DNA of 64,000 nt from Sulfurimonas sp. Its GTDB lineage: Bacteria; Campylobacterota; Campylobacteria; Campylobacterales; Sulfurimonadaceae. A model generated the notes under the pieces. The model saw only the letters and a program-made list of their open reading frames with translations. It was not told the origin of the DNA and ran no database searches. Position numbers and translations under genes: made by a program. This document shows, piece by piece, positions 1 to 64,000 of the stretch (position 1 is its first letter; every line of letters begins with the position of its first letter). The stretch spans positions 3,875-67,874 of the forward strand of contig JAQTZE010000004.1 of NCBI GenBank assembly GCA_028687935.1, given 5' to 3'.

Positions 1-97
1 TGCTCTCAAAGCAGGTGTAAATAACTATATAGTAAAACCGTTCACACCTCAGGTACTCAAAGAGAAGCTTGCTGCTGTTATGGGTGTTTCAGAATAA
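1..97 (+). CDS. cheY: CheY-type response regulator, C-terminal fragment (gene begins upstream of window)
   Basis: The frame from nt 2 reads ALKAGVNNYIVKPFTPQVLKEKLAAVMGVSE-stop (TAA 95-97), with the K-P-F receiver-domain end. The stop overlaps the prmA ATG. The cheY-prmA-ftsH order matches C. jejuni. Confidence 0.7.
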   Translation, partial: ALKAGVNNYIVKPFTPQVLKEKLAAVMGVSE

Positions 98-924
98 TGC
101 AGGAGCATTATTTTGAACTCGTAGTCAAAGTTTCATCACACCTTCCTCTTTACTCAGACTTTCTTGTTGATACACTCCCTATTGGTTTTGAAGAGACAGA
201 TGATGGTTTTGTAATACGAAGCGAAGATGAACTTGATACTATTATTTGGGGATTGGAGCAGTTTACTGAGGCTCTTCAAAAAGCACTTGGTCAAACAATA
301 GAGCTTGAATGCGTGCAGACAAAGCAAAACAATAGCGACTGGGTTGGAATCTATCAGCAAAGTATAGAACCTTTGGCAATTGATGGTTTTTATATCCACC
401 CGACATGGAATGAGCCACATCCAGATTTAATTAATATCGCGATAGATCCGGCACTTGCGTTTGGAACAGGACATCATCCTACGACTGCTTCTTCTCTTCG
501 TGCAATCGGACGTTATGTAAAAGCGGGTGATACTCTTATAGATGTTGGATGCGGCAGCGGGATACTTGGTATTGGAGCGATGAAACTTGGAGCACAAGTG
601 GATGCCTGTGATACAGATATCATCTCTGTAAATAACAGCATTGAAAATGCACAACTCAATGAGTTGGAGTTTTCTAAGATATGGGAAGGTTCATGCAGCC
701 TCAGTGAATCTACTTATAATATAGTAGTGGCAAATATAGTTGCAGACGTTCTCACTTTTATAGCAAAAGATCTCAAAAAAGCACTCAAAGAAGATGGAAT
801 CTTAATTTTATCCGGGATACTAGATAAATATGAAAACAAGGTTTTAGCATTTTATAAAGATTGCGATATAGTTGAGAGAATCGCTCAAGATGAGTGGGTA
901 ACACTCGTTTTAAAAAGAAAATAG
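97..924 (+). CDS. prmA: Ribosomal protein L11 methyltransferase
   Basis: 275 aa. Carries the GTGHHPTT and SAM-binding DVGCGSGILGI motifs typical of PrmA. Confidence 0.9.
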   Translation: MQEHYFELVVKVSSHLPLYSDFLVDTLPIGFEETDDGFVIRSEDELDTIIWGLEQFTEALQKALGQTIELECVQTKQNNSDWVGIYQQSIEPLAIDGFYIHPTWNEPHPDLINIAIDPALAFGTGHHPTTASSLRAIGRYVKAGDTLIDVGCGSGILGIGAMKLGAQVDACDTDIISVNNSIENAQLNELEFSKIWEGSCSLSESTYNIVVANIVADVLTFIAKDLKKALKEDGILILSGILDKYENKVLAFYKDCDIVERIAQDEWVTLVLKRK

Positions 925-936
925 GAAAAATAAAAC

Positions 937-2946
937 ATGTCAAAAAAAGAACAAAATAGTAATGACAATAACAATAATAACTTTTTTAATAAAAATCCAT
1001 TAATAACATTTGCCATTTTTTCTGTTGTTATAATTTTACTTTTTAAAGTTGTTATAGGTGAAGGTGGATCTATGGATGGCTCCGTCGCTGGAGCAAATAC
1101 AAAGACAAAACAGATAAGCTATTCAGAGCTTAAAAGTCTTGTTGAAACTAAAGCAGTGAGTAAAGTAGATATCGGTCAAACATATATCAAAGCACTCTCA
1201 ACTGATGGTAGAACACAATATACGACAAGAATCGTAAAAAATGATACAAAACTCACAGAAGAACTTGATAAACAAGGTATCGACTATGAAGGTTTTAGTG
1301 AATCGAATTGGTTTACAGAGATGTTTGGCTGGTTGTTTCCATTTTTGATCATCATCGCTATCTGGATGTTCTTTGCAGGACGTATGCAAAAGAGTATGGG
1401 TGGCGGTATCCTCGGTATGGGGAACTCAAAAAAAATGGTCAACTCTGAAAAACCTAAAACAAAGTTTGATGATGTAGCTGGTGTAGAAGAGGCCAAAGAA
1501 GAGGTACAAGAGATTGTTGACTTTTTGAAATATCCTGCGCGCTACGTAGAAATCGGGGCAAAAATACCTAAAGGTGTTCTTCTTGTAGGTTCTCCAGGAA
1601 CTGGTAAAACTCTTCTTGCAAAAGCTGTTGCAGGTGAGGCAGATGTACCGTTTTTCTCAGTAAGTGGTTCAAGCTTTATCGAGATGTTTGTTGGTGTCGG
1701 TGCAGCGCGTGTACGTGATTTATTTGAACAAGCAAAAAAAGATGCTCCGAGTATCATCTTCATTGATGAGATTGATGCTATCGGTAAAAGCCGTGCAGCG
1801 GGTGCTATGATGGGTGGAAATGATGAGAGAGAACAAACACTCAATCAGCTTCTCGCAGAGATGGATGGTTTTGGTACAGATATTCCTGTTATCGTTTTAG
1901 CAGCTACAAACAGACCTGAGATACTTGATCAGGCACTTATGAGACCAGGCCGTTTTGATAGACAAGTTCTTGTTGATAAGCCAGACTTTGCAGGACGTGT
2001 GAAAATCCTTAAAGTGCATATGCGCAATGTGAAAATGGATGATGATGTTGAGATCGAAGAGATCGCACGTCTGACAGCGGGACTCGCAGGTGCTGATCTT
2101 GCAAATGTTATCAATGAAGCAGCACTTTTAGCGGGAAGAAAAAGTCAAAAAACTGTGAAACAAAAAGATCTTTTTGAAGCAGTTGAACGTGCTATTGCCG
2201 GACTTGCTAAAAAATCACGCCGTATCAACCCAAAAGAGAAAAAAATAGTAGCCTACCATGAAAGTGGGCATGCGCTTTTAGCAGAGACTACTGTGGGTGC
2301 GAGAAAAGTGTCTAAAGTTTCCATTGTTCCACGTGGACTTGCAGCTTTAGGATATACACTGAACAAACCTGAAGAAGATAAGTTTATGATGCAACGTCAT
2401 GAGATGTGGGCGGAAGTGGATGTACTTCTTGGTGGTCGCGCGGCTGAGCAGGTCTTTATAGGTGAGATATCTACAGGTGCAGGAAATGACCTTGAACGTG
2501 CGACTGATATCATTAAGTCAATGGTGCAAACCTATGGTATGAGTGATGTAGCTGGTTTGATGGTGCTTGAAAAGAGCAGACATTCATTCTTGGCTGGCGG
2601 ACAGCAAGCAAGTAGAGAGTATAGCGATAAGATGGCTGAGAAGATGGATGAGTTTATTAAATCATCGCTTCAAGAGAGATACGAGCTTGTTGTGGCTAGA
2701 CTTGAAGAGTATAGAGATGCTATCGAAGATATGGTGGCACTTTTGTATAAAAAAGAGAATATTGAAGGTTCAGAGGTAAGAGAGATCATCTTAAACTTTG
2801 AAAAAGCAAACAATATCGACTCTAAAGTGACACAAGATACAAGCCATATCGAAGATGAACTCAAGCAAGATGCTACGATGTCTTCTAAAAAAGATGTCAG
2901 CGCAGATGCTGTAGATGAAGATAGAGAGCAAGAAGATGAGAAGTAA
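937..2946 (+). CDS. ftsH: ATP-dependent zinc metalloprotease FtsH
   Basis: 669 aa with an N-terminal TM segment. Walker A GSPGTGKT, Walker B IIFIDEID, and Zn site HESGHA. Confidence 0.97.
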
Positions 2947-3568
2947 TCTTTTACCAGTTTTAAAACAGGGTTGGGGCTATATAGCTTGGGCATTTGGACT
3001 TTTTGTTCTTTTTGCTTTACTCGATTGTAATATTTTGCAGTTCTTATCTTTTGTAGCTTTTGCTGCGTTTATCTATGTATATAGAAATCCTGAGCGAGAG
3101 TTGCCACTGTTTCAAAACTCAAGTGTGACGAGTCCTGTGGATGGTACTGTGATATCTATAGAAGAACTTGATGATCCTGAATATGGATACAAAGTAGAAA
3201 TTGAGAGCGACTTTTCAAATGTAGCAGTTTTACGTGTACCGATGAGTTCTTCGTTACTCTCTGTCGTACATCTAAAAGGGACTCGTCTTGCTAAGAACTC
3301 TCCTTTGTTTACAAAAACAAATGAAAACGCAGTGCTTATTTTTGAAAATAGAGATGCAAATAAGGTCAAAGTCGTCCATAGATGTAAGCAAAGTTTTGAT
3401 GGTATTCATATTGACATCATCATGGCGCAAAATCTTACACAATCATTCAGATATGGTTCTATGATCCATGGTGTAACTTCGATCTATCTGCCGAGAAATT
3501 TTAGACTTAATATTACTGTTTCAAATGAACTTATTGGTTCTGAAACTTTGATAGGGTATTTTTCATAA
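2936..3568 (+). CDS. Phosphatidylserine decarboxylase-related membrane protein
   Basis: The ATG at 2936 overlaps the ftsH stop; the ORF-track start at 2915 is less likely. N-terminal TM, an SPVDGTV motif and a C-terminal IGSE motif. It sits between ftsH and pssA, as Cj1115c does. Confidence 0.6.
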   Translation: MRSNLLPVLKQGWGYIAWAFGLFVLFALLDCNILQFLSFVAFAAFIYVYRNPERELPLFQNSSVTSPVDGTVISIEELDDPEYGYKVEIESDFSNVAVLRVPMSSSLLSVVHLKGTRLAKNSPLFTKTNENAVLIFENRDANKVKVVHRCKQSFDGIHIDIIMAQNLTQSFRYGSMIHGVTSIYLPRNFRLNITVSNELIGSETLIGYFS

Positions 3569-4301: not shown

Positions 4302-6650
4302 CTACTTCTCTTTACTCTGCTTTTCAAATAAAAGTTTATCCAAGTCTATCTCAAAGTTAAAATACTCTGATACAAATCCATTATCGCCAACTTTTGAGAA
4401 TTGTATCGCAGCCCCTTCGTTGTTTTGTACTTGAAGATAAAGTAGACCAAGCGCATAACGGCTCTCTACAAAGTTTGTATCTTTCATCTTTGAGAGTTCT
4501 AGAAGTACAATTGCGTTTTCATGATGTGCCGCCGCAGTTGAAGCAACAGCACCAAGAAAAAGTGTCAGTGCATCGCGTACTTTTTGCTCATCTATAAGAT
4601 AGTTGTAGAGCGTAAAGGACTCTTCATATGCTCTATCATAGAGTGAAGCCAAAGCAAGTGCATTTGTGATCTCTTGCGTATTTTTATCTGTTGTAGCTAA
4701 GGTTTTTTTGAGCTGCTCACGAAGAAAATAGAGTTTTCCAGTAAAAAGATTTTGCTGAATATAAAGATAACGAGTGATATAGGGCCCAAAATACAAATCA
4801 TCGAAGTCGAAATGTTGCTCTTTGAGATAGTTGAGGACTTTGCTTGCATACTCTTTTGGTTTGAGTTCTCCAAAATAGGCATCGATATAGATCATATGCG
4901 GCAAGATATCTTCAGGAAGAAGAAGAGAGAGTTTTGCAGCGGAACTTTGAGCTCTGTCTGTTTTGTTGATGCCCAGTCCGATGATAACATCCATAGCAAG
5001 ATATAAGGGTTGTTCTTCATAAGTACGGTCGAGCCATTCGATAGCTGAGATCATGTCGTTATCGGAGATATGCAAAAGGTTTTTATAGAGATCTATCTCT
5101 TCGCTTTGCATTTCGTTCATGATAGAATCTTTTACTATAGATGTGAGTTTTGTACTCTCTTTGCCAATGAGCTGGCTCGTCATGATGGCGAAGATTCCTG
5201 AGAGATAGTTCTTTGCATCAAGATGATAGGAACGTAAAAAATGTTCATTTGCTTTGATCATGTCACCGAGTTGTGCATAGGTGAGTGCCAAGTTATAGTG
5301 AAGAATAGAGTGCTTTGGCTGAATAATAACGAGCTTTTGAAGATCCTCATTAGCTTCACGGATTTTAAACGCGAGTGCTTTTTTTATCGCTTTAGTAATC
5401 CCATAGTTGACGCTGGAGGAAGAAGCCCCTTTTTGCAAATATTCTTTTGCCGCATCCATATTGTCTATAAAAATATTTGCAGTTCCTTTACGGATATAAC
5501 TGATTGTTTGATTCGCATTAAAGACTTTATAGGGAGAAAAATAGAAGATTTTTTGGTATATCATCGATTTTGAGTTTTCTACCTTTTCTCTATAGTGCAC
5601 TTGTGCTTTTTCAGGTTCAAATATACTCTCCTTGAGCGTTACTTTTATAGGATAGTGCAGATAAATTTCTTCTGGAAACATGTCCGTTGCGTTTTTTATA
5701 TCTTTACCGCCGCTAGCAATCTTGCCGGATTTTAGTTTTACAAGCCCTTGTGCTAGTTGTGATTTTACTGGTTCAATGTTTTTGATGATAGACTCTTCAA
5801 AATGGCTAATTGCAAGGGGATAATCCCCGATTCTTGCATATAAGAGAGCTATACTAAAGTCATCGATATAGTTAAAATCCTGTTCCATAGCCTCGATTGC
5901 TTCATAGTCATTTCCAAAAAGGGCATTGATTTTAGCGCGAAGATGTTTTTGCGTACTTGGGTATTCATCTGACGTTGTGTTATTGAGCGCAGCCAGTGCT
6001 TCAAGGTAGTTTTGGTTGTAGTAGTTTATAAGTGCATAATAGTAGGAATATAGAGGAGACTCTTGCTCAAAGGGAAGATATGCATAGGCAAGATCGATGT
6101 AATATCTGAACTTCTCAGGATTCTCAAGATGCAGAGAACATACAGCTGCGTTTATGGCACTTACACATCTTTTTTCATCATTTTGTATCGCTTTGGAAAA
6201 TGTATCAAGAGCCTGTTCATATTGTTTATCTTTGAGCTGTGCTACACCAAGATTGTATTGGGAGATTGCTTCACTGTAGAGTGCTATTTTTTCATATAAA
6301 AAGAGGGCCTCATCTTTGGAGCCATTTGAATAGAGATAGTTCGCTTTGGCGATCATATTTTCTAGTTGGCTTGGTTCTATCGGGATGGTGCTGTTTTGTT
6401 CAAGTTTCTCTTCTATAGACTCCATTGAAAGTGGACTTTCATCAGGAGATTTTTGAGACAAAACTAAAAGTATTAATGCGATTATTAGAAGTAATACAAA
6501 AGCAGAAGCACCAAAGATGATGACTTTTTTCTTTTTTGCATCTGAAGATGAAGAGGTGTTTGTCTCTTCTGATGCATCAGGGGAGACTGCATCAAACGCA
6601 GCCGCGTCATTCTCTTCAATGATAATGATATCTTCTGTCAGTTCCGCCAT
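4302..6650 (-). CDS. Membrane-anchored TPR-repeat protein
   Basis: 782 aa. Acidic N-terminus, one TM helix (VIIFGASAFVLLLIIALILLVL), then many TPR-like helical repeats. Confidence 0.7.
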   Translation of the reverse strand: MAELTEDIIIIEENDAAAFDAVSPDASEETNTSSSSDAKKKKVIIFGASAFVLLLIIALILLVLSQKSPDESPLSMESIEEKLEQNSTIPIEPSQLENMIAKANYLYSNGSKDEALFLYEKIALYSEAISQYNLGVAQLKDKQYEQALDTFSKAIQNDEKRCVSAINAAVCSLHLENPEKFRYYIDLAYAYLPFEQESPLYSYYYALINYYNQNYLEALAALNNTTSDEYPSTQKHLRAKINALFGNDYEAIEAMEQDFNYIDDFSIALLYARIGDYPLAISHFEESIIKNIEPVKSQLAQGLVKLKSGKIASGGKDIKNATDMFPEEIYLHYPIKVTLKESIFEPEKAQVHYREKVENSKSMIYQKIFYFSPYKVFNANQTISYIRKGTANIFIDNMDAAKEYLQKGASSSSVNYGITKAIKKALAFKIREANEDLQKLVIIQPKHSILHYNLALTYAQLGDMIKANEHFLRSYHLDAKNYLSGIFAIMTSQLIGKESTKLTSIVKDSIMNEMQSEEIDLYKNLLHISDNDMISAIEWLDRTYEEQPLYLAMDVIIGLGINKTDRAQSSAAKLSLLLPEDILPHMIYIDAYFGELKPKEYASKVLNYLKEQHFDFDDLYFGPYITRYLYIQQNLFTGKLYFLREQLKKTLATTDKNTQEITNALALASLYDRAYEESFTLYNYLIDEQKVRDALTLFLGAVASTAAAHHENAIVLLELSKMKDTNFVESRYALGLLYLQVQNNEGAAIQFSKVGDNGFVSEYFNFEIDLDKLLFEKQSKEK

Positions 6651-6855: not shown

Positions 6856-7239
6856 ATGCAAGAATACATACTCAAGAGTGACGATTTTTTAGTCTCTCAG
6901 ACTGATGACAGAGGGATAATTCAGTTTGCCAATGATGATTTTTGTAAAATAGCAGGATATACGCTAGAAGAACTTGTTGGTAAGCCTCACAATGTAGTTC
7001 GTCACAGTGATATGCCAAAGGCTGCGTTTAAAGATCTATGGGAGACAGTTTCAGCTGGTAAGATCTGGACAGGTTATGTGAAGAACAGAACAAAAGATGG
7101 TGGCTATTATTGGGTATTCGCAACAGTATTTCCAAAATATGACACACAAACAAAAGAAAAGTCTTATATATCTTGTAGAAGAAAACCTTCTACAGAAGAG
7201 ATAGAAGATATTCAAAAACTCTACAAGACGATGAGATAG
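6856..7239 (+). CDS. Aer-type PAS domain protein (CetB-like energy-taxis sensor)
   Basis: 127 aa. The Aer PAS signature is present: [16 protein letters not shown]......[16 protein letters not shown]. Confidence 0.9.
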
Positions 7240-7247: not shown

Positions 7248-8357
7248 ATGAACACAATGCAAAAAAACATAATACTGGTACTGATCTTTATAGGTCTTAT
7301 AGCTGCTCTTTTCTTGACAAGTTCAACAATAATACATGTTGCTTTGGCTGTTATAGCTCTAGTTGCAAGTGTTGTTCTTCAAATGTTGAAGGAAACTTCA
7401 ATCCAAAACATCAAAGTCTTAGATGAACTTTTGGAACTACTAGAGTTTAGAAGAAACAAAGTAGCTATCAATGAAGCAACAGAAGATAGTGTAGAAAAAG
7501 GGCTCAACCGACTTGTAACTCAGTATCAAAATAGTGTTCTTGAAGATACTCAAGTAGCTGGAGAGATGGTGCTATTGGCTGATAGAGTTTCAAAAGGGCA
7601 CTATACATGTAGAGTTATAGCTGATACGAAAACTCCTTATGTGCACGTTTTACGAAAGAGCATGAACAATATGATTGATAATTCAGAAAAGAATATTGAC
7701 AATGCTATCGTTACTCTGCGCAGTTTCTCAAAAGGGACTTTTGATGCAAGAAGTGCCGTGAATGTAGAAGCTAAAATGGCTGATTTGTTGAATAATATCA
7801 ACTCTCTTGGTAAATCTCTTCAGGATATGGAAAAGAATAATAAAGATTCTCAAGAACAGATAGTAGAGTCTTCTTCAAAACTCAATAAAACAATAGCTAC
7901 AATAACAAATACAACGATCATCGAACTCAAAGATATGATCAGTACAGCGGTAAATAGAATTCATGAAGTCTCTGCAAAAGAGAATGAAATGGTCGGTAAT
8001 CTACAAAGACTTGTCTTAAACGCAAATGAGACTAAAGCGATACTCTCAACAATCGGTGATATAGCAAATCAAACAAATCTTCTTGCACTAAACGCAGCGA
8101 TAGAAGCAGCGCGCGCTGGAGAACATGGACGTGGATTTGCTGTTGTTGCTGATGAAGTTCGTAAGCTAGCTGAGATAACACAAAAAAGTTTGGCTGAGAT
8201 ATCTGCTACGACAAACGTGCTGATCCAATCTATCTCTGAGAGCTCAGATACCTTAAACACAAACGCAGATGAAGTAAATAGTATCTCTTCAGAAATCAAT
8301 CATATAAGTGATAAAATAGACGACATCATCCATACACTAAAAACGCTAGTAGAATAA
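7248..8357 (+). CDS. Methyl-accepting chemotaxis protein without a periplasmic domain (CetA-like)
   Basis: 369 aa. N-terminal TM hairpin and the signalling hairpin [31 protein letters not shown]. Starts 9 nt after the PAS gene. Confidence 0.9.
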
Positions 8358-11403: not shown

Positions 11404-12315
11404 TTAGAGGAGAATCTCTTTTGCGATTTGGAATTGATTGGCAGTCATAAGATGGATTTTTGGATGATATGCTTTGATGGAGTCAAATAGATTTTTACTC
11501 AGTTCAAAACCGACTTTATACTCCTCTTCAGGGCTGATGTCATGAGCGCTTCTCAGTGCTTCTATCCAATACTCTGGCACATTGATGCCTGGTACATGAG
11601 CAGAGAGAAACTGTGCTGTGCGAAGTTTTGTGATAGGAAAAATACCCAAAATAAGCTCTGCACTTTTGTTATCATAGCGTACTTCTTTGTTCGCGAGTTC
11701 TTTAAGCTCAAGAAGTTGTTTTGCATTTTCTAAATCATAAACAGGTTGTGTAATGATTCCAACTGCTCCGTGTGTTATCTTTCTTTGCATCTTCTTTTGG
11801 AGCGTTTTTGGATTTTTTGCATAAGAGTTGACTACTGCAAAGGGATAGATATGTTGCGGTGCAGGAGTAAAAGGCTTCCCAACATAGTTCATACCTGAGT
11901 TAAACGCAGAGATGATATCTAGCAGTAGAGAACTATCTCCTTCAAACACGCCTTTGACATGTGGTTGGTCAGAAAGCGTTGCTGGATCGCCTGTGAGCGC
12001 CAATATCGTACGTATATCGACTTCATTTGCTCCAAGCAGATCTGATTGCAAAGCAATTTTATTTCTATCACGCATACTCATTGTGGCAATGACAGGCTTG
12101 TGAAATCTATCTTGAAGCATTTTCGCTGCGAAAAGGGCGTTGTATTTGAGTTTTGCCAATGGATTGTCTGTTGTAGAGAAGCCATCGACAAGTTTATCAA
12201 GACCAAGCTCTTCTATCTTCTCTATTATCGGAGAAAACTGAGGAGAGTGCCCCGGCGTCGTCTCCAAAGTAATATATGTACCATTTTGTAGTTTATTTAT
12301 GAGTGTATCAAACAA
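11404..12315 (-). CDS. Methylenetetrahydrofolate reductase family protein
   Basis: 303 aa. MTHFR-like pattern: TLETTPG..., ILALTGDPA. Confidence 0.7.
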   Translation of the reverse strand: MFDTLINKLQNGTYITLETTPGHSPQFSPIIEKIEELGLDKLVDGFSTTDNPLAKLKYNALFAAKMLQDRFHKPVIATMSMRDRNKIALQSDLLGANEVDIRTILALTGDPATLSDQPHVKGVFEGDSSLLLDIISAFNSGMNYVGKPFTPAPQHIYPFAVVNSYAKNPKTLQKKMQRKITHGAVGIITQPVYDLENAKQLLELKELANKEVRYDNKSAELILGIFPITKLRTAQFLSAHVPGINVPEYWIEALRSAHDISPEEEYKVGFELSKNLFDSIKAYHPKIHLMTANQFQIAKEILL

Positions 12316-13794: not shown

Positions 13795-13821
13795 AAGACT
13801 TCAAGCCTAGCCTGAAGTCTT
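13795..13821. terminator. Hairpin between convergent genes
   Basis: 9-bp stem aagacttca / tgaagtctt with a 9-nt loop. Confidence 0.55.
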
Positions 13822-51618: not shown

Positions 51619-51714
51619 ACAAATCCTTCATAAATTATCAAATAGAGTTGTATTATAGGCAAAGTTTCATAAAAAGCACATCTGCGTTTAACCTTAGTCA
51701 TTTTAGTAAACTAA

Positions 51715-51745
51715 CTTGACATCAAGTCACTCAAAGTGCTATAAT
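51715..51745 (+). promoter_or_regulatory. Consensus sigma-70-type promoter of clpB overlapped by a HAIR-like (HspR) inverted repeat
   Basis: TTGACA (51716-51721), an 18-nt spacer, then TATAAT (51740-51745). CTTGACA-N7-ACTCAAA (51715-51735) compares with the HAIR consensus CTTGAGT-N7-ACTCAAG. Confidence 0.5.
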
Positions 51746-51772: not shown

Positions 51773-54349
51773 ATGAAAAATATTTTTGAAAAACTCACAC
51801 ATAATATGAATGAAGCGATTGAATCATCAATCTCTCTCGCCCTACACAATAAAAATCAAGAAGTAGAGCCTTTACACTTTTTGTGGGCACTTTTGGCAAA
51901 TTCTAACTCAGTACTCAACCAGATGTTTAACAAAATGAGCATCGATAAAGTGGCTATGGAGTTAGATGTAAAAAGTATGGCTGAAAAGTTAGTCAAATCA
52001 TCCACTGTTTCCAAAGAGAATATTAAACTCTCTCGTAATTTTGCAACATCACTTGAGGGTGCGGCAGGGCTCATGACGAATAATGGAGATGCATATCTTG
52101 CAGTCGATACCTATATCTTGGCAAACCTCAAAACAGAGCCATTTAGCACAATACTCTCAAAATATATAGATGTCTCAGAGCTGAAGAAAAATCTTGAAGC
52201 TGCTCGCGGAGGCTCAAAGATAGATTCACAAAGTTCTGATGAGACTTTGGAGAGCCTTAAAAAATATGGGATAGATCTTACAGCTCAAGCAGCAGAAGGG
52301 AAGCTTTCTCCTGTGATAGGACGTGATGAAGAGATAACGCGAACGATGCAGATACTTATACGCAAAACAAAAAACAATCCTATGCTTTTAGGTGAACCTG
52401 GTGTTGGTAAAACAGCTCTTGTTGAAGGCCTCGCACAACGCATTCAAAGCGGAGATGTCCCAACTTCATTGAAAAATAAAAAAGTTATCGCACTTGATAT
52501 GAGTGCACTTATCGCGGGTGCAAAATATAGAGGAGAGTTTGAGGATAGACTCAAAGCTGTAATTGATGAGGTCAAAGCAAGTGGTAATATCATCCTCTTT
52601 ATTGATGAGATACATACAATTGTCGGAGCGGGTGCGAGTGAAGGAAGTATGGATGCGGCAAATATCCTCAAGCCAGCCCTTGCACGTGGAGAACTTCATA
52701 CGATTGGAGCTACGACACTCAAAGAGTATAGAAAGTATTTTGAAAAAGATGCGGCGCTTCAGAGAAGATTTTTGCCGATAAACCTTGATGAACCGACGGT
52801 CAATCAATCTCTGCAGATATTGCGTGGGATAAAAGAGCGCCTTGAGACGCACCATAATGTGACTATCACAGATAGTGCACTTGTGGCGGCTGCAAAGCTC
52901 TCAGATCGCTATATAGCCGATAGATTTTTGCCTGATAAAGCGATCGATCTTATTGATGAGGCGGCGGCTGAACTAAAAATGCAGATAGAATCCGAGCCGA
53001 AAATACTGAGCGTGGCAAAGAGAAAAAGTTCTGAGCTGCAAGTAGAACGTGAAGCACTTAAGATGGAAAAAACGCCTGCAAATGACAAACGACTTCCTGA
53101 AATAGATAAAGAACTCGCAGATGTCGAAGAAGAAGTGAGAAGCCTCAGTGCGCAGTTTAGCAATGAAAAAGAGGTGTTTGGACGTATTGCAAGTATCAAA
53201 AATGAGATAGAACAAAAACGCCGTGAAGCCAATACGGCAAAAAGTACATCAGACTTTAACCGTGCAGCTGAGATAGAGTATGGTGAGATTCCGGCACTGC
53301 TTCAAGAAGAGAAAAAGATAAATGAAAACTGGGAACAACTACAAAAAGAGGGCACGCTACTTAAAAATTCTGTAGATGAGGATGCGATAGCGAGTATTGT
53401 TTCTCGTTGGACGCAGATACCAGTTTCAAAAATGTTGCAGTCTGAACAGACGAAAATACTGCACGTTGAAGAGGAACTCAATAAAGATGTTATCGGACAG
53501 CAAAAAGCGACACATGCGGTCGCGCGTGCTATAAAACGCAACAAAGCAGGGCTTTCAAATACAAATGCACCGATAGGAAGTTTTCTTTTCCTTGGACCAA
53601 CAGGTGTAGGAAAAACGCAGACAGCGAAAACACTTGCGAAGTTTCTCTTTGACAGTGAAGATGCGATGATTCGTATCGACATGAGCGAGTATATGGAAAA
53701 ACACGCAGTCTCGCGTTTAGTCGGTGCAGCTCCTGGGTATGTGGGTTATGAAGAGGGTGGACAGTTGACAGAGGCTGTGAGAAGAAAACCATATAGCGTT
53801 ATACTTTTTGATGAGGTAGAAAAAGCACACCCAGATGTTTTTAATATGCTCTTGCAGGTGCTTGATGATGGACGCTTGACGGATAATAAGGGGGTGACTG
53901 TTGATTTTACAAACACAATTATCATCCTCACATCCAATATTGCGAGCGATAAAATCATCAATAATCCTAAAACTGCTGAGCTTGATGCGATGGTCATGGC
54001 AGAGCTAAAGCTTGCGTTTAAGCCGGAATTTTTGAACCGTCTGGATGATATCGTTATCTTCAACGCTCTTGGTCAAGAGCAGATAACAGGTATCGTAGAT
54101 ATCTTCTTCGCAGATATCGCCAAAAAAGTCCAACAGCGTGACATAGAGCTTACACTAAGCCCTGAAGCAAAGGCATATGTAGCAGAAGCTGGTTTTGATC
54201 CTGTATACGGGGCAAGACCACTCAAACGTGCACTCTATGAAATCGTTGAAGACCGCCTTGCGGATTTAATCTTAGAAGGTATTGTTACTGAAGGAAGTAA
54301 GGTTGCGTTTATACTTAAAAATGGAGAGATAGAAGCAGTTGTATCGTAA
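51773..54349 (+). CDS. clpB: ATP-dependent chaperone ClpB
   Basis: 858 aa. Two AAA modules ([16 protein letters not shown]) and a coiled-coil M-domain. Confidence 0.97.
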
Positions 54350-55615: not shown

Positions 55616-57229
55616 GTGCTAGACAAAATGACACCAAATCAGAGATTAATAGTTGCAGTACTATTGTCAGTAATTTTTTTCGTGGCCTATACGGCAATTT
55701 TTCCACCAAAACAAGAAGAAGTACTTGATGCAAACAAAAGCAAAAGTATAACACTCAAAGATACTTCAGAGCAAAACGCAGCTGCAGTAGTGCAGGCGCA
55801 AGCAGGTCATGAAATTTCTGCACAAGATAAAATGGCACAAAGTGCTTCAAGTAATATCGTAACAGTGACAAATGAGAAGTTTATTCTCAAAATAGATACA
55901 CTTGGACGTATCTCTTCAAAAGAGTTACGTCAGGCAAAATTTAGAGATAAAGACAATAAGCATGCAGAGCTTATTCCGACGCTTGGAACAAAACCTCTTT
56001 ATGTAAGATTTTTGGACGAAGAACTGAACAAAGAAGCGGCTACAGTCGCATATACGGCAAATGTACAAGCTATCAACCTTGCAGGAGAGGCTCAGAAAGT
56101 AACACTGACGCAAACACTCTCTTCTCTAACAGTAACAAAAGAGCTGACATTTTATGCTGATGGCCACTATGATGCAACGATTAAGCTCTCTAAAGATGCA
56201 AGATATTTCGTCTATCTAGGACAGCGTCCAGAGATAACTGAACAGATGATGACAGTTACGGGTGCTATGGTCTATACGGATGATGAGTTAGTAAATATCA
56301 TAGAAGATGGAGATGCAGAAGGACGTAAAACTTTCAGCGGCGTAGCACTTATATCTGCGTTTGATCAGTATTTTGCTTCTATCATGTATGGCTTTGCAAA
56401 AGAGACAAATGTCATGGTTGAAAAAGATAAAAATGACAATCCAGTTGTCTATTTTGAAGGGCTTTCAACAATGAGCTTTAATGGTTATGTTGGAGATAAA
56501 GATTTTAAAACGCTTCAAGCTATTAACCCAGTACTCACAAACGCAATAGAGTATGGCTGGTTTACTTTTGCTGCGAAACCTCTTTTTGCACTTCTTTTAT
56601 GGTTACATGGGATTTTTGGAAACTGGGGTTGGGCGATTATCGGACTTACTCTGATTATCAGAATGGTTCTTTACCCTTTGACATACAAAGGTATGGTCTC
56701 TATGCAAAAGATCAAAGAGATTGCACCGAGAATCAAAGAGGTTCAGGCAAAATATAAAGGCGATCCGCAACGTATGAACGCAGCGGTTATGGATATGTAC
56801 AAAAAACACGGCGCAAACCCACTTGGTGGTTGTCTGCCGATGCTTCTACAGATTCCTGTTTTCTTTGCAATTTATCGTGTTTTATTAAACGCAGTAGAAC
56901 TTCAAGGTGCACCATGGGCTCTATGGATCACAGACCTTTCTCGTATGGATACATACTATATCTTGCCAATTTTAATGGGTGCTTCTATGTACTACCAACA
57001 AAAATTGACGCCAAACAATTTTACAGATCCTATGCAGGAAAAAGTATTTAAATTTTTACCAATTATCTTTACATTTTTCTTTATAACATTCCCATCAGGT
57101 CTAGTCCTTTACTGGATAGTGAATAACCTCTTCTCTATCGCGCAACAGTTTGTAGTAAACCAACAGTTTAAAAACGCTAAAGACGCAAGGGAAGCTATCG
57201 CAAAAGGTGCGGAGAAACACAATGATTAA
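55616..57229 (+). CDS. yidC: Membrane protein insertase YidC
   Basis: 537 aa with a GTG start. Periplasmic P1 domain followed by a conserved 5-TM core. Confidence 0.95.
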   Translation: MLDKMTPNQRLIVAVLLSVIFFVAYTAIFPPKQEEVLDANKSKSITLKDTSEQNAAAVVQAQAGHEISAQDKMAQSASSNIVTVTNEKFILKIDTLGRISSKELRQAKFRDKDNKHAELIPTLGTKPLYVRFLDEELNKEAATVAYTANVQAINLAGEAQKVTLTQTLSSLTVTKELTFYADGHYDATIKLSKDARYFVYLGQRPEITEQMMTVTGAMVYTDDELVNIIEDGDAEGRKTFSGVALISAFDQYFASIMYGFAKETNVMVEKDKNDNPVVYFEGLSTMSFNGYVGDKDFKTLQAINPVLTNAIEYGWFTFAAKPLFALLLWLHGIFGNWGWAIIGLTLIIRMVLYPLTYKGMVSMQKIKEIAPRIKEVQAKYKGDPQRMNAAVMDMYKKHGANPLGGCLPMLLQIPVFFAIYRVLLNAVELQGAPWALWITDLSRMDTYYILPILMGASMYYQQKLTPNNFTDPMQEKVFKFLPIIFTFFFITFPSGLVLYWIVNNLFSIAQQFVVNQQFKNAKDAREAIAKGAEKHND

Positions 57230-58199
57230 GATTGAAGCATCAACACTCGAAGAGGCATTTAAAAACGCAGCCTCTACGCTCGAGTGTTCTGTTACTGAAC
57301 TCAAAGTAGAAGTTGTTCAGTATCCTAGTAAGGGAATGTTTGGACTTTTCAAAAAAAACGCAGTTATTGTTGCGACAACTACAAGTAAGCAACCAAGAGA
57401 AGAAGAGGTAAAGCCTCAGATCATTAAAAAAGAAATCAAACGAGAAGAAAAACAAGAAGATAAAAAAGAAAAACCACAACAAACGCAAGCTTTAGTAGAA
57501 AAAAAAGTAGAAGTTAAAAAAGAAAAGATACAAAATACTCCAAAACCTTCCCCAGAAAAAATAGTTAAACCGGCAAGAACAAATATTTCTAAATCACATA
57601 ACATTATTAATGATACGATCATGCCAGCTTCATTTGTAAGTGATCAAGATGATTATGAAGATGATTTTGAAGGTATCCATTATACTGCTGATTATGATGA
57701 TGTTTATGATAATAATGATGATGAGATCCATGTCGATATGCATGAGATAGCAAAGAATGTTGCTAAAGATATCAATAAACTTTTTGATCTTGCATGTTTT
57801 AATATTGATAAAATCGATGTAAGTGCATATGATGAAAATACGCTTTTAGTCGAATTTAGAGGCGAAGATGCAGCACTTTTAATTGGCAAAGAGGGATATA
57901 GATATAAAGCACTCTCTTATATGATTTTTAACTGGATAAACGCCAAGTATCAAGTACAGTTGCGTTTGGAAATAGCAGAATTTTTGAAAAATCAAGAAGA
58001 GTCTATTACTCGTTATCTTGTCAATGTTTGTGAGATCATCGACAAAGATGGACGCGCACAGACAAAGATCCTCGATGGCGTTTTGATCCAGATCGCACTT
58101 CGAGAACTTAGAGAGCGATACCCTGAGAAGTATGTCGTTATCCGCTCAACACGCGATGGCCTTAAATATATTATCGTCAATGACTACCATACAAACTGA
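57222..58199 (+). CDS. Jag/KhpB-like RNA-binding protein
   Basis: Start at MIKIEASTLEEAF (57222). Jag_N-like N-terminus, a long Lys/Glu-rich linker and a KH-like region LLIGKEGYRYKAL. Sits in the yidC-jag-mnmE order. Confidence 0.8.
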   Translation: MIKIEASTLEEAFKNAASTLECSVTELKVEVVQYPSKGMFGLFKKNAVIVATTTSKQPREEEVKPQIIKKEIKREEKQEDKKEKPQQTQALVEKKVEVKKEKIQNTPKPSPEKIVKPARTNISKSHNIINDTIMPASFVSDQDDYEDDFEGIHYTADYDDVYDNNDDEIHVDMHEIAKNVAKDINKLFDLACFNIDKIDVSAYDENTLLVEFRGEDAALLIGKEGYRYKALSYMIFNWINAKYQVQLRLEIAEFLKNQEESITRYLVNVCEIIDKDGRAQTKILDGVLIQIALRELRERYPEKYVVIRSTRDGLKYIIVNDYHTN

Positions 58200-59529
58200 T
58201 ACAATAGCCGCCATTGCAACTGCCAATGGCATCGGCTCTATCGCCATTATCCGACTAAGTGGTTCTCAAGCACTGCAAATCGCAAAAAAACTCACTAAAA
58301 AAGATACGCTCACACCTCGCTATGCAACACTCAGCACAATTTACAATAAAGACGAAGAACTTTTAGATGAGGCTATCGTTATCTATTTTGAAGGACCGCA
58401 CTCTTTTAGCGGCGAAGATATCGTAGAGATACAGTGTCATGGTGGTTTTATCGTGGCGCAAAGTATTCTCAAAGCAACTCTTCAAGCAGGAGCAAGACTT
58501 GCAACTCCTGGAGAATTTAGTAAACGGGCATTCTTTAACGGTCGTATAGACTTGAGTGAAGCAGAAGCTATCGCACAGCTCATCGAAGCCAAAAGTGAAG
58601 ATGCGGCAAAGATACTCGCAACTCAAATGAAAGGTGCACTCAAAGGCTATATCGAAGATATCCGTGATGAGATTATTCATATTCTTGCTTACTCTGAAGT
58701 GAGCATTGACTATGCAGAAGAGGATCTTCCTGAAGATTTGGTGATGCAGATAGAAGCAAAACTTCAAGAGCTCTCTAAAAGTCTTGAAAAAACACTGCTG
58801 GCTTCACAAACAAGAGCAGGGCTCATGCAAGGTTTTCGTGTAGCTATTGTCGGTAAGCCAAATGTGGGAAAAAGTTCACTTTTAAACTCACTATTAAGTT
58901 ACAACCGTGCAATAGTGAGTGATATTGCAGGAACGACGCGCGATACGATTGAAGAACAGGTCAAAATCGGCACACACCTTATCCGTATTGTCGATACAGC
59001 AGGTATCCGTGAAGCAAGTGATGAGATAGAGCGTATCGGCATAGAACGCTCCCTTGAAGCGATCGATCAGGCAGATATCGTCATCGCACTTTTTGACGCT
59101 TCGAGAGAAAGAGACGCTGAGGACGAAAAAATCCTCTCACTCATAGGAGAACACGCAAGAGGCAAAAAGATTATTTTCATCAAAAACAAGATCGATCTTG
59201 AAGAAAAATTTGATGCCAAAGCGCTGCGTTTTGACCTAGAACTCAATACAAAAGAGAGTGTTTCATTACTCATCAAAACACTTGAAGGCATTATGGATCA
59301 GACAAATAGTTCTGATGAGATGATGCTTATTTCACAGCGTCAAATATCAGCCGTGCAAAATACCCTAAACGCGATAGAAGATGCCTACGAGCCTCTGCAT
59401 ATGCAAGAGTTGGAGATATTCTCTTTTCATCTTAATGAAGCGATAAAAGAGATGGCGAGTATAACACGTCCTTTTGAAAATGATGAGATGCTTGACAAGA
59501 TGTTTGGCTCTTTTTGTTTGGGTAAATAG
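58180..59529 (+). CDS. mnmE: tRNA modification GTPase MnmE
   Basis: Start at MTTIQTDTIAAIAT (58180). G domain with GKPNVGKSSLLN and DTAGIR, and the C-terminal FCLGK. Confidence 0.95.
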   Translation: MTTIQTDTIAAIATANGIGSIAIIRLSGSQALQIAKKLTKKDTLTPRYATLSTIYNKDEELLDEAIVIYFEGPHSFSGEDIVEIQCHGGFIVAQSILKATLQAGARLATPGEFSKRAFFNGRIDLSEAEAIAQLIEAKSEDAAKILATQMKGALKGYIEDIRDEIIHILAYSEVSIDYAEEDLPEDLVMQIEAKLQELSKSLEKTLLASQTRAGLMQGFRVAIVGKPNVGKSSLLNSLLSYNRAIVSDIAGTTRDTIEEQVKIGTHLIRIVDTAGIREASDEIERIGIERSLEAIDQADIVIALFDASRERDAEDEKILSLIGEHARGKKIIFIKNKIDLEEKFDAKALRFDLELNTKESVSLLIKTLEGIMDQTNSSDEMMLISQRQISAVQNTLNAIEDAYEPLHMQELEIFSFHLNEAIKEMASITRPFENDEMLDKMFGSFCLGK

Positions 59530-59924: not shown

Positions 59925-60089
59925 CTTTAGCTCTAATAGAGATTATTTCTAGTCGATAAAATAGCTGCGTTTTCACTTTAAACTTCCTCCGCTTTAAAAA
60001 TAAGAAAAAAATTTTTACAACCGAGATAAATTGTGCTAATATTTCACAACGATTAATCAGAGTGATTTGTTGAAATAAAAAGGTGTAGT

Positions 60090-62303: not shown

Positions 62304-62464
62304 TTACACTCGTCACGTACGATAGTACGCTTCCTCGTTAGACTCCTTGAATTTTCATCACTCTTTTAGTTTTTAGTCTCTTGCATATTTTTATTATTGC
62401 ACTTTTTACTGCGTTTGTTAATAACTTTTTGCTATAGTTGCGCCATTTACAATAAGGATTTTTC

Positions 62465-62869
62465 ATGTTTTTAGAGTCGTTTCTCTTTTTTCTACTTTTC
62501 TTCTTTTCTGCTGTTGGAGTTTTAGTTCTGTTTTTATTTTTGTATGCAAAAGTTACTCCTTATGACGATTATAGTCTAATATTTAAGGAAAATAATTTAG
62601 CAGCAGCTGTTGCGTTTGGTGGAGCAGTTCTTGGACTTTGTATCCCTCTTTATAGTGCGCTTGTGAGTTCTGTCTCTTATGTAGATTTTATTCTTTGGGC
62701 TATTGTGGCGATGGGCGTTCAGTTAGTGTTGGCGTTTATGATGATTCGTATCAATATGAAGTTTTCATTTGAAAAACTTATAGAGAACGGTGTTGTTCCT
62801 GTAGGCGTATTCATGGCGTTTTTATCTATCTCTGTAGGACTCTTAAACGCAGGCTCAATGAGTTACTAA
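62465..62869 (+). CDS. DUF350 family membrane protein
   Basis: 134 aa with 4 TM helices. The KVTPYDDYSLIFKENNLAAAV motif is typical of DUF350. Confidence 0.7.
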   Translation: MFLESFLFFLLFFFSAVGVLVLFLFLYAKVTPYDDYSLIFKENNLAAAVAFGGAVLGLCIPLYSALVSSVSYVDFILWAIVAMGVQLVLAFMMIRINMKFSFEKLIENGVVPVGVFMAFLSISVGLLNAGSMSY

Positions 62870-62899
62870 AACTAAAATAGCCAAGTAATATATTCTATT

Positions 62900-64000
62900 T
62901 TATACTTCTTCGGCTTGTTGTTTTAGTAGTTCTATAAACGCAGCTTCTGGGATTGCTTTTGATTTCAGATAGCCTTGGTAGAAGTCACATTTTTTCTTCT
63001 GCAGATACTCAAGTTGATACTCTTCTTCCACGCCTTCAGCAATAGTTTTTAGGCCTAAAGACTCTCCCATGAGAAGAATTGTATTGAGTAAAATAAGATT
63101 CTTCTCATTTCCTTTTATGATCTCATCGACAAAACTCTTATCAATCTTAATCGCATCAATTGGAAACTTTTGAAGATACTGCAAAGATGAATAGCCCGTT
63201 CCAAAATCATCAAGATAGATACTAATACCAAGTTCGCGGACTTTATGCAACAGATCTGAAGCAAAAAGACTATTTTCTACCATAACACTCTCTGTTACTT
63301 CAATAGAGAGATTTTTTGCTTGAATATCGTTTATTTGCAGAGCATGTTTTAAGTGATAGTAGAGTTCTGTATCTTTGGCTTGTAATGTGGATATATTGAC
63401 AGATATATTAATTGCATCAAAGCCAAGTAGTTCTAATTTTTTAATAAAGCGCGCCCCTTCGCAGAGCACAAATTTTCCAATATTTAAAATAAAAGTAGAA
63501 CGCTCGGCAAGTGGAATAAAGGTGTTTGGAAAAATTAAACCTTTTATTTTGTGTTCCCACCTAATGAGGGCTTCGGCGCCTACAATCTTTTGTGTGCTCA
63601 CATCTACTTTTGCTTGATAGTAGAGTTTAAACTCGCCTTCATCTAGGGCTCTGTGCATATCTTCTAGAAGATTTACTTCGTTATGTAGAGCATCATCGAG
63701 TGATTTTGTGAAAAATTTGAAGTTGTTGGTTTCGTGTGCTTTTGCGCTGTACATAGCCATATCTGCGTATTTCATAAGCTCGTGAATATCTTTGGAGTCA
63801 TCAGGATATAGGGCGCAGCCAATACTTGTAGATGATTTGAGTATTTTGCTTTTGACAATAATCTCTTTTTTAAAGATATCTAAAATCTTTTCTATGCCTT
63901 CGAGGATACTTTGTTCATTTTGTATATCACTTAAGATGATGATAAACTCATCGCCGCCGATTCGTGCAACCAAATCATTTTCTCTAAGAGTACTTTTAAG
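62900..64000 (-). CDS. GGDEF-EAL protein, C-terminal part (gene continues beyond the window end)
   Basis: The reading frame is open to nt 64000. The GGDEF motif is RIGGDEF. The EAL domain has EALIRW and DDFGTGYSSL. Confidence 0.88.
   Translation of the reverse strand, partial: LKSTLRENDLVARIGGDEFIIILSDIQNEQSILEGIEKILDIFKKEIIVKSKILKSSTSIGCALYPDDSKDIHELMKYADMAMYSAKAHETNNFKFFTKSLDDALHNEVNLLEDMHRALDEGEFKLYYQAKVDVSTQKIVGAEALIRWEHKIKGLIFPNTFIPLAERSTFILNIGKFVLCEGARFIKKLELLGFDAINISVNISTLQAKDTELYYHLKHALQINDIQAKNLSIEVTESVMVENSLFASDLLHKVRELGISIYLDDFGTGYSSLQYLQKFPIDAIKIDKSFVDEIIKGNEKNLILLNTILLMGESLGLKTIAEGVEEEYQLEYLQKKKCDFYQGYLKSKAIPEAAFIELLKQQAEEV

Follow-up and report, generated by a model that had tools for sequence, protein, structure and literature searches.

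Abundance and definition of the motif

A 64,000-nucleotide stretch of the chromosome of a sulfur-oxidising Sulfurimonas (contig JAQTZE010000004.1, assembly GCA_028687935.1; the whole stretch is called the window below) is densely marked by a short, strict DNA word, H-AAACGCA-R. The word occurs on both strands and mostly inside genes. We hold with about even confidence that it serves as a self-DNA tag for natural transformation, maybe coupled to methylation. Such a tag would be an analogue of, and not homologous with, the DNA uptake sequence (DUS) of Neisseriaceae and the uptake signal sequence (USS) of Pasteurellaceae.

The octamer AAACGCAG and its reverse complement CTGCGTTT were found 63 times in the window (35 on the + strand and 28 on the - strand). 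A preliminary description, made by eye, had estimated 55-60 exact copies with about 30 in each orientation, and had predicted that a given 8-mer would occur only a handful of times; both statements agree with our counts. Dinucleotide-preserving shuffles (n = 100) yielded 2.21 +/- 1.54 copies with a maximum of 8, and the order-2 Markov expectation was 2.9 (Poisson p = 4e-60). A genome-wide count near compositional expectation had been named as evidence against an uptake signal; the window gave 63 copies against 2.2-2.9. AAACGCAG was the top-ranking 8-mer of the window, with the poly-A words below it.

The core octamer of the preliminary description was real, but the motif is wider, as AAACGCAA added 46 copies. 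Together, AAACGCAR occurred 109 times (58 +, 51 -), that is 1.70/kb or about one copy per 600 bases. A purine followed AAACGCA in 109 of the 117 heptamers of the window, G was avoided just upstream (5/117), and C was mildly favoured directly 3' of AAACGCAR. The flanks otherwise carried ~0 bits at every position, so the copies are dispersed 8-mers and not parts of a longer repeat. The full motif is H-AAACGCA-R. One-mismatch variants at positions other than R had few copies each in the window; among them TAACGCAG, previously listed as a common variant, was present in 3 copies only and was not enriched. The example coordinates given earlier were correct except for 24765-24772, which should read 24755-24762. 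The four copies of AAACGCAG reported in folP were also recovered, with two copies of the AAACGCAA type besides.

Orientation and spacing

GC skew was positive in nearly all of the window, indicating that the + strand is probably the leading strand. AAACGCAR was split 58:51 between the strands (53% on the presumed leading strand; binomial p = 0.57, over 64 kb only), and the motif is therefore non-polar. The strong leading-strand skew that the preliminary description had named as counter-evidence was absent from the window. A polar signal, such as a Chi site for AddAB or a sequence orienting FtsK like the FtsK-orienting polar sequences (KOPS), would share with the motif the over-representation of an 8-mer, and we know of no established Chi sequence for Campylobacterota. 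Nevertheless, the orientation of Chi and KOPS strongly follows that of replication, and the even split on a positive GC skew excludes polarity of that kind. The density of AAACGCAR is also several-fold above that of Chi in Escherichia coli. We see only a very slim chance that the word is a polar signal.

The copies were evenly spread over the window, with spacing close to Poisson. The longest motif-free gap was 3030 bp, compared with a simulated mean of 3073, and the variance-to-mean ratio of counts in 2-kb bins was 1.42. Since the gaps were no longer than Poisson, gap lengths gave no evidence for motif-free foreign islands in the window. The preliminary description had pointed to the absence of the motif from a "cyclase-like" gene at 43138-43794. 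The gene indeed has no copy, which is not significant (0 vs 1.1 expected), and its naming as cyclase-like was unsupported, with no Pfam match.

Codon choice and placement in genes

The open reading frames (ORFs), which make up 93% of the window, contained 105 of the 109 AAACGCAR copies. Copies had been reported in at least two frames per orientation and in genes on both strands; we found all six frames in use, unequally, and the motif is thus not confined to one frame or one protein motif. Asn-Ala (N-A, written xxA-AAC-GCA-R) accounted for 44 copies, antisense Ala-Phe (A-F, GCG-TTT) for 32, Thr-Gln (T-Q, ACG-CAR) for 18 and other contexts for 11. This concentration in a few dipeptides is what a by-product of codon, dipeptide or base composition might show. 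However, per-gene synonymous-codon shuffles gave 9.9 +/- 2.8 sense copies vs 66 observed and 3.1 +/- 1.6 antisense copies vs 39 observed, or 13 in total against 105, an 8-fold excess.

The excess over synonymous shuffles arises because rare codon pairs are chosen. N-A pairs were written AAC-GCA in 54 of 95 cases, though AAT:AAC was 591:368 overall, and A-F pairs were written GCG-TTT in 39 of 75 cases, though GCG made up 254 of 1669 Ala codons (15%). In orthologues from motif-free relatives, the dipeptides were present in similar numbers and encoded as AAT-GCN and GCA-TTT; in a set of 18 genes, too small to support amino-acid change driven by the motif, N-A, T-Q and A-F counts in the window were slightly above those of the outgroup orthologues. 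The codon shuffles and the different encoding in outgroups place the force at the DNA level, and it acts mostly via synonymous choices. The earlier statement that codon or peptide bias cannot explain the motif is borne out. Motif load was not linked to protein conservation (Spearman -0.17, p = 0.37), and the density of 1.7/kb in conserved genes vs 2.3/kb in less conserved ones was not a significant difference.

A dispersed repeat element of the repetitive extragenic palindromic (REP) or miniature inverted-repeat transposable element (MITE) type does not fit the ~0-bit flanks and the 105 genic copies of 109. With AAACGCAG at 63 copies against 2.2 (shuffles) and 2.9 (Markov), and with outgroups writing the same dipeptides otherwise, the probability that the word is a by-product of composition or a dispersed repeat is close to nil. 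Codon bias and repeat elements were rejected on the grounds of the shuffles, the outgroup codon choice and the uninformative flanks.

Maintenance, turnover and loss in related genomes

Syntenic loci of relatives were obtained via FolP homologues. A ClpB-based scan of a genome collection provided three Campylobacterota loci among the matches listed, and 77 unrelated loci served as negative controls. The preliminary description had proposed repeating the count in related genomes, and there the same motif proved to be lineage-specific. AAACGCAR reached 1.4-2.4/kb in sister species (L082-L086, L089 and L094; ~81% protein identity), compared with 0-0.3/kb in other Sulfurimonas, three other Campylobacterota and 40+ unrelated genomes.

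In codon alignments, motif sites of the window were present at the identical position in 15 of 46 cases in L084 and in 19 of 44 in L089, and the corresponding figure for L084 vs L089 was 26 of 31. No motif site of the window recurred in the outgroups L091 and L087. At 4-fold degenerate sites, the identity of the window to L084/L089 was 0.44-0.46, as low as that with distant outgroups (0.42-0.43), indicating that the common sites were kept or re-created against saturated neutral change. The other window sites were lineage-specific, and the orthologous sequence often differed at several positions, including amino-acid changes. Between L082 and L084, which belong to one species (99.0% identity), 3 of 33 sites were polymorphic, with one gain, which arose by two substitutions, and two losses; these events are too few to test biased transmission.

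The retention of positions over saturated synonymous divergence, the even spread over the window, and the lineage-specific nature of a word that can be lost or replaced would also suit a word that is preserved by selection acting on the chromosome itself and not by uptake bias, either as a non-polar site bound by an abundant chromosomal protein, e.g. one that organises or condenses the nucleoid, or as a "self" mark read by a nuclease or a defence system. In contrast, within-species gains and losses proceeded at approximately the background rate (3 of 33 sites at 1% divergence), which argues against strong selection on each site. Moreover, no system of this sort is known to us in which a strict 8-mer, different from one sister lineage to the next, recurs at ~1.7 sites/kb. 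We consider such a site quite unlikely.

The pool of AAAYGCAR was 1.9-2.2/kb in the clade vs 0.40/kb in outgroups, a 5-fold increase, and the motif outnumbered every one-mismatch class ~4- to 10-fold or more. Compared with outgroups, variants were enriched 6-8-fold at positions 7-8 and only 1.4-2-fold at positions 1-3, and they were depleted at positions 4-6. As the whole AAAYGCAR pool is enlarged and the variant classes are rare, the force acts on the whole word.

Loss of the motif was also observed. In a 9-protein tree with the topology (window,(L090,(L084,L089))), L090 (JGI Ga0455842_0000333) was nested inside the motif clade, but it had only 3 copies in 12 kb (0.25/kb), all at ancestral positions. 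Other ancestral positions held decayed forms such as AAATGCAG, AAATGCCA and CTGCATTT, including CpG-decayed remnants, and its AAATGCNR classes were elevated. This is the pattern that loss of an active drive predicts. L102, related to AAACGCAR carriers, looks like a second, partial decay, and both loci would be natural loss-of-function controls. In these comparisons the motif stands at an equilibrium that an active process sustains, and this process can be lost.

Other hyperabundant words in Sulfurimonas

A metagenome scan with FolP added 80 loci (61-79% FolP identity), and the FolP loci were surveyed blindly for 8-mers exceeding the order-2 Markov expectation (Poisson test). AAACGCAG was also hyperabundant in L110, L115 and several short contigs. 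Other loci had different words. CACATGCC, extended to a-w-w-T-C-CACATGCC-A, was found in L087, L095, L098, L105 and L109, and ACATGCCA in L131. ACATGTAG, with the consensus CTACATGTAG, marked L088 (Ca. Sulfurimonas baltica, CP054492.1), L099, L113, L124, L140, L151 and L160. ACATGTAA, with the consensus TTACATGTAA, was present in L166 (0.9/kb) and L156, and ACACGCAA in L123 (15 copies in 10 kb). CTCACGCA(R) occurred in L165, L130 and L174 (RefSeq "MULTISPECIES Sulfurimonas", GCA_009192995.1), where CTCACGCAR reached 0.5-0.7/kb; the dialect word of GCA_009192995.1, probably a cultured strain, was CTCACGCAG. Among the cultured or complete genomes, at least two (L088 and L174) have a dialect. About half of the loci had no hyperabundant word.

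The strongest locus for each type of word had p = 1e-14 to 2e-24 and weaker loci 5e-8 to 1e-9; the best values survive correction for ~2e6 tests. Each alternative word was 5-15-fold above synonymous-codon shuffles, on both strands. We also observed that (T)CCACATGCCA occurred at ~0.5-1.1/kb in L087 (ERZ28669879, a 2.43-Mb Sulfurimonas genome), L095, L098, L105 and L109, with 10 copies in 21 kb of L087 vs 0.2 expected. Its 5' flank was AT-rich, a quarter of the copies were extragenic, and a single frame accounted for 20 of the 29 in genes. CTACATGTAG reached 1.5/kb in L113 and 2.6/kb in L124, a 3.5-kb contig.

The words fell into two core families, xxACGCAR and xACATGxx, and were grouped by clade with switches and losses, in which they resemble, as far as sequence goes, the DUS "dialects" of Neisseriaceae. 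Sister lineages could differ in word (L088 vs L098) or have none (L145, L155, L107, L121 and L146). A multi-gene tree grouped the lineages with ACACGCAA, AAACGCAR (L110/L115) and CTCACGCAR; deep nodes of our neighbour-joining trees (single-gene and 23-gene) are unreliable. L110/L115 had 5-7 AAACGCAR positions in common with the window clade, many of them at predisposed AAATGCAR sites. Given the unreliable deep nodes, the word in L110/L115 may be inherited, convergent or transferred.

The pattern of presence, replacement and loss recalls the cyanobacterial highly iterated palindrome HIP1, GCGATCGC, an 8-mer of comparable abundance that is lost or replaced by alternate motifs and correlates with cognate methyltransferases, and for which methylation-dependent mismatch repair has been proposed as a model (PMC4390886). 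In Sulfurimonas, a lineage-specific methyltransferase that recognises all or part of the word, together with methylation-dependent mismatch or very-short-patch (VSP)-type repair, could similarly turn near-matches into perfect sites and protect them, with no role in uptake. In favour of such an origin, CATG is the centre of two dialects that are perfect 10-bp palindromes, sites were most often gained and lost by the CpG transition AAATGCAR <-> AAACGCAR, and one-mismatch variants were enriched mainly at the outer positions 7-8. On the other hand, palindromic symmetry is lacking in the window motif and in three further dialects, and a T-to-C bias at a single position can produce neither the 5-fold expansion of the AAAYGCAR pool nor the 8-fold or greater shortage of position 1-3 variants relative to the motif. 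No DNA methyltransferase or Vsr-like gene was found among the genes of the 64-kb window. The m5C motifs of S. denitrificans (CGCG, CCNGG, GATC and CCGG; PMC8112702) are unrelated, and the HIP mechanism is itself only a model. We consider this repair-based origin, the main rival of an uptake tag, unlikely. Pure VSP-type T-to-C repair bias as the sole cause was rejected, as the AAAYGCAR pool is 5-fold up and all positions are constrained.

A putative self-DNA tag for natural transformation

The footprint is that of a short, strict word at ~1/kb, equally frequent on both strands, placed in genes where the codon context makes it least costly, confined to a clade, and showing dialects, turnover and decay after loss. 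The sole experimentally established cause of such a footprint is biased uptake in natural transformation, as in the DUS and USS systems. By analogy, a component of the Sulfurimonas uptake machinery, with a specificity that can change, would bind double-stranded DNA carrying the motif, possibly only if methylated, as in Campylobacter jejuni. Motif-bearing fragments of relatives would be imported preferentially, protected by DprA and recombined, and alleles that create the motif would be over-transmitted (molecular drive). Copies would then accumulate where coding constraints permit, mainly by synonymous switches such as AAT-GCN to AAC-GCA, GCA-TTT to GCG-TTT and ACA-CAR to ACG-CAR.

Campylobacterota are widely transformable. 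Natural transformation is reported to have been tested in Aliarcobacter butzleri (PMC8308473), and C. jejuni is reported to distinguish its own DNA by methylation when DNA is taken up (PMC8468864). In an uncultured Campylobacter sp. metagenome-assembled genome (L002, NZ_CALIJF010000042.1; 46% GC) we observed 101 RAATTY sites in 10 kb, 7.9x expectation, with AAATTTTA/AAAATTT as top k-mers. RAATTY was at 0.6-1.5x in other Campylobacterota loci and, at 0.8x, was not enriched in the window. The excess in L002 suggests that selective uptake can mark the genome in Campylobacterota as well. The literature searched yielded nothing on competence or uptake sequences in Sulfurimonas, and a full-text search for the raw 8-mers returned primer lists only.

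Several observations weigh against an uptake tag. The only competence-associated gene of the window is dprA, whose presence the preliminary description had used as support and which is confirmed by its PF02481 match (E = 1e-53); dprA is nearly universal, and many bacteria that are not transformable have it as well. No pilin, comEA or comEC was found among the genes of the 64-kb window. The three intergenic copies of AAACGCAG reported earlier at 51682, 59965 and 62409 are present, but intergenic AAACGCAR was not enriched (4 vs ~7 expected) and none of these three lay within a terminator-like hairpin. Neighbour distances below 60 bp numbered 10 vs 10.5 expected, i.e. no pairing beyond chance, and the inverted pairs at terminators that the preliminary description had suggested seeking were likewise no more frequent than chance. 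About half of the DUS and USS copies lie in predicted terminators (10.1101/2025.10.24.684340). The presence, replacement and loss of words parallels HIP1, and the perfect CATG-centred palindromes CTACATGTAG and TTACATGTAA recall HIP motifs. Finally, the analysis covered 64 kb of the source genome and ~20 kb per relative. The uptake-signal reading thus retains density, symmetry, DNA-level excess, clade restriction, maintenance with turnover, decay after loss and the different words of other lineages, and loses intergenic enrichment and terminator pairs; the uptake function is proposed by analogy.

More tentatively, and below even confidence, we propose that mutually exclusive self-DNA tags gate transformation across the genus, in free-living, chemolithoautotrophic Sulfurimonas, with at least seven dialects in the two core families. 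As tags would be repeatedly switched or lost between close lineages, each switch would be a recombination barrier. The cores resemble ACRCAG-type and CATG sites, which we take to be typical m6A methyltransferase targets, so recognition may combine sequence and methylation.

If true, the Sulfurimonas words would bridge the sequence tag of Neisseria and Haemophilus and the methylation mechanism of C. jejuni. Sequence-specific uptake is experimentally established in two families only, Neisseriaceae and Pasteurellaceae, both host-associated. The words would be the third family of uptake sequences to have evolved independently and the first from bacteria other than host-associated Proteobacteria. 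An unrelated set of tags in a genus that is abundant in the environment would demonstrate repeated evolution of self-recognition in transformation. Dialect switches and losses would help to find the receptor by comparative genomics and would make it possible to ask whether speciation in nature is driven by the divergence of tags. In practice, placing a strain's own word on transforming DNA could make Sulfurimonas genetically tractable, and the tags could serve to place metagenomic contigs in lineages and to reveal DNA of recent acquisition. Should methylation-linked repair be the cause instead, the motif would correspond to HIP1 but lack its palindromic symmetry, and it would offer a new way into that unsolved problem.

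Gene content and other features of the window

The window is ordinary housekeeping chromosome of a Sulfurimonas metagenome-assembled genome. Its core genes include prmA, ftsH, serS, rpsF-ssb-rpsR, dprA, queA, tatBC, aspartokinase, hobA, holB, folP, HU, fba, clpB, yidC, mnmE, ruvX and ilvC, along with many genes for PAS, GGDEF, methyl-accepting chemotaxis (MCP) and histidine-kinase (HK) proteins. Table 1 lists dprA and all motif copies. The three copies clustered in the NUDIX hydrolase gene were all kept in the sister species L084 and L089 and were missing from outgroups.

The highest motif load in the window (9 copies) was found in the gene at 40409-42313 (-), which encodes a 634-aa protein with no Pfam or NCBIfam match; its orthologues (63-65% identity) were found in the motif clade and in L090 alone. 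The genes at 37673-39208 (-), 42398-43117 (-) and 43138-43794 (-) showed conserved synteny downstream of HU and no family match; the product of the first is fast-evolving (45-69% identity to orthologues). The 588-aa protein encoded at 13821-15587 (-) has a C-terminal OmpA/MotB-like region and scored 77 bits against the Zorya ZorB2 model, far under the cutoff of 400; it is probably an ordinary peptidoglycan-binding protein rather than a defence gene. A perfect sigma-70-type promoter match (TTGACA-18-TATAAT with extended TG) was located at 51716-51745 (+), ~30 bp upstream of clpB, adjoining the intergenic motif at 51682.

Table 1. Positions of dprA, the three-copy cluster and the individual AAACGCAR copies in the window; sense and antisense refer to the gene named.
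Feature	Position	Strand	Context
dprA (DNA processing protein A)	24681..25454	+	PF02481, E = 1e-53; 4 motif copies
Cluster AAACGCAG-N12-CTGCGTTT-N6-AAACGCAG	29537..29578	direct, inverted, direct	42 bp, NUDIX hydrolase gene
AAACGCAA	455..462	-	prmA antisense
AAACGCAG	3063..3070	-	psd-like antisense
AAACGCAG	3325..3332	+	psd-like sense
AAACGCAA	3658..3665	+	CDP-alcohol PT sense
AAACGCAA	3801..3808	-	CDP-alcohol PT antisense
AAACGCAA	4511..4518	-	TPR protein sense
AAACGCAA	5687..5694	-	TPR protein sense
AAACGCAG	6146..6153	-	TPR protein sense
AAACGCAG	6594..6601	+	TPR protein antisense
AAACGCAG	7022..7029	-	PAS antisense
AAACGCAA	8018..8025	+	MCP sense
AAACGCAG	8090..8097	+	MCP sense
AAACGCAG	8261..8268	+	MCP sense
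AAACGCAA	8357..8364	+	intergenic
AAACGCAA	11169..11176	-	serS sense
AAACGCAG	11902..11909	+	MTHFR antisense
AAACGCAA	12905..12912	-	HAD antisense
AAACGCAG	13204..13211	-	orf136 antisense
AAACGCAA	13842..13849	+	orf588 antisense
AAACGCAG	13952..13959	-	orf588 sense
AAACGCAG	14469..14476	-	orf588 sense
AAACGCAA	15122..15129	-	orf588 sense
AAACGCAA	18152..18159	-	TonB receptor antisense
AAACGCAG	18662..18669	-	TonB receptor antisense
AAACGCAG	21407..21414	+	MCP sense
AAACGCAA	23730..23737	+	deacetylase sense
AAACGCAG	24755..24762	+	dprA sense
AAACGCAG	24983..24990	+	dprA sense
AAACGCAG	25042..25049	-	dprA antisense
AAACGCAG	25409..25416	+	dprA sense
AAACGCAG	25537..25544	-	queA sense
AAACGCAG	25558..25565	+	queA antisense
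AAACGCAG	25675..25682	-	queA sense
AAACGCAA	26069..26076	+	queA antisense
AAACGCAA	26095..26102	+	queA antisense
AAACGCAA	26214..26221	-	queA sense
AAACGCAA	26780..26787	+	tatC antisense
AAACGCAG	28282..28289	+	radical SAM antisense
AAACGCAG	28377..28384	-	radical SAM sense
AAACGCAG	28696..28703	-	radical SAM sense
AAACGCAG	29537..29544	+	NUDIX sense
AAACGCAG	29557..29564	-	NUDIX antisense
AAACGCAG	29571..29578	+	NUDIX sense
AAACGCAA	31900..31907	-	holB antisense
AAACGCAA	32005..32012	+	holB sense
AAACGCAG	32205..32212	+	folP sense
AAACGCAG	32325..32332	+	folP sense
AAACGCAG	32466..32473	+	folP sense
AAACGCAA	32488..32495	+	folP sense
AAACGCAG	32614..32621	+	folP sense
AAACGCAA	32648..32655	-	folP antisense
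AAACGCAA	35252..35259	-	PiT sense
AAACGCAG	35649..35656	+	PiT antisense
AAACGCAA	36544..36551	-	Sel1 sense
AAACGCAG	36996..37003	-	PPIase sense
AAACGCAA	37144..37151	+	PPIase antisense
AAACGCAG	37806..37813	-	orf511 sense
AAACGCAG	38029..38036	-	orf511 sense
AAACGCAG	38179..38186	-	orf511 sense
AAACGCAA	38315..38322	-	orf511 sense
AAACGCAA	38427..38434	-	orf511 sense
AAACGCAA	40422..40429	-	orf634 sense
AAACGCAG	40630..40637	+	orf634 antisense
AAACGCAG	40678..40685	-	orf634 sense
AAACGCAG	40769..40776	-	orf634 sense
AAACGCAA	40871..40878	+	orf634 antisense
AAACGCAG	40973..40980	+	orf634 antisense
AAACGCAA	41095..41102	-	orf634 sense
AAACGCAA	41291..41298	+	orf634 antisense
AAACGCAA	42248..42255	+	orf634 antisense
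AAACGCAG	42917..42924	-	orf239 sense
AAACGCAG	44068..44075	+	fba sense
AAACGCAA	44995..45002	+	fba sense
AAACGCAG	45078..45085	-	orf115 sense
AAACGCAG	45301..45308	+	orf115 antisense
AAACGCAG	45680..45687	+	class I MTase sense
AAACGCAG	45773..45780	+	class I MTase sense
AAACGCAA	47482..47489	+	hybrid HK sense
AAACGCAG	47971..47978	+	hybrid HK sense
AAACGCAA	49571..49578	+	SurA-like sense
AAACGCAG	49730..49737	-	SurA-like antisense
AAACGCAG	49790..49797	+	SurA-like sense
AAACGCAA	50132..50139	+	PLP enzyme sense
AAACGCAA	50218..50225	+	PLP enzyme sense
AAACGCAG	50313..50320	-	PLP enzyme antisense
AAACGCAG	50660..50667	+	PLP enzyme sense
AAACGCAA	50671..50678	-	PLP enzyme antisense
AAACGCAG	50722..50729	+	PLP enzyme sense
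AAACGCAG	51682..51689	-	intergenic, upstream of clpB, not in terminator-like hairpin
AAACGCAA	53534..53541	+	clpB sense
AAACGCAG	53613..53620	+	clpB sense
AAACGCAA	54012..54019	-	clpB antisense
AAACGCAA	54303..54310	-	clpB antisense
AAACGCAG	55774..55781	+	yidC sense
AAACGCAG	56355..56362	-	yidC antisense
AAACGCAA	56539..56546	+	yidC sense
AAACGCAG	56887..56894	+	yidC sense
AAACGCAG	57263..57270	+	jag-like sense
AAACGCAG	57356..57363	+	jag-like sense
AAACGCAA	57481..57488	+	jag-like sense
AAACGCAA	57960..57967	-	jag-like antisense
AAACGCAG	59224..59231	-	mnmE antisense
AAACGCAG	59965..59972	-	intergenic, after ruvX, not in terminator-like hairpin
AAACGCAA	60130..60137	-	orf126 antisense
AAACGCAA	62180..62187	+	ilvC sense
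AAACGCAG	62409..62416	-	intergenic, after ilvC, not in terminator-like hairpin
AAACGCAA	62610..62617	-	DUF350 antisense
AAACGCAG	62845..62852	+	DUF350 sense
AAACGCAG	62936..62943	+	GGDEF-EAL antisense

Comparison with known systems

With Chi and KOPS, the Sulfurimonas motif has in common only that it is an over-represented 8-mer; those signals are strongly oriented with replication, unlike AAACGCAR. HIP1 is closer, being a hyperabundant 8-mer within genes that is missing or replaced in some lineages and whose sites are maintained (PMC4390886). However, HIPs are GC-rich palindromes tied to cognate methyltransferases, whereas AAACGCAR is non-palindromic. C. jejuni, in which CtsM methylates RAATTY, is another member of the phylum and is reported to tell its own DNA from other DNA during uptake (PMC8468864). 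RAATTY is a degenerate 6-mer read through methylation, in contrast to the specific 8-10-mers of Sulfurimonas.

AAACGCAR has no core in common with either the DUS, GCCGTCTGAA, or the USS core, AAGTGCGGT, and is not a member of either family. DUS and USS occur about once per kb, and the 1.7/kb of AAACGCAR is in that range. The USS, for which the predicted receptor is the minor pilin ComN, is likewise non-palindromic, abundant in coding DNA with preferred frames, and differs in subtype between genera; molecular drive caused by biased uptake can account for its build-up. The window motif differs in its lack of AT-rich flanking segments (~0 bits), its shorter length and the absence of terminator association.

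The DUS, which has several dialects and is bound by the minor pilin ComP, is unrelated in sequence, belongs to another phylum and is longer (10-12 nt vs 8 nt), and the Sulfurimonas motif lacks its enrichment in intergenic DNA and in inverted pairs at terminators. The Sulfurimonas dialects also diverge far more (ACGCAR-type vs ACATG-type) than those of the DUS. Nevertheless, both are short, strict words at ~1/kb, in both orientations, inside and outside genes (PMC3630211; 10.1101/2025.10.24.684340). The DUS is, moreover, clade-specific with dialects between related lineages, and the Sulfurimonas words follow the same pattern.

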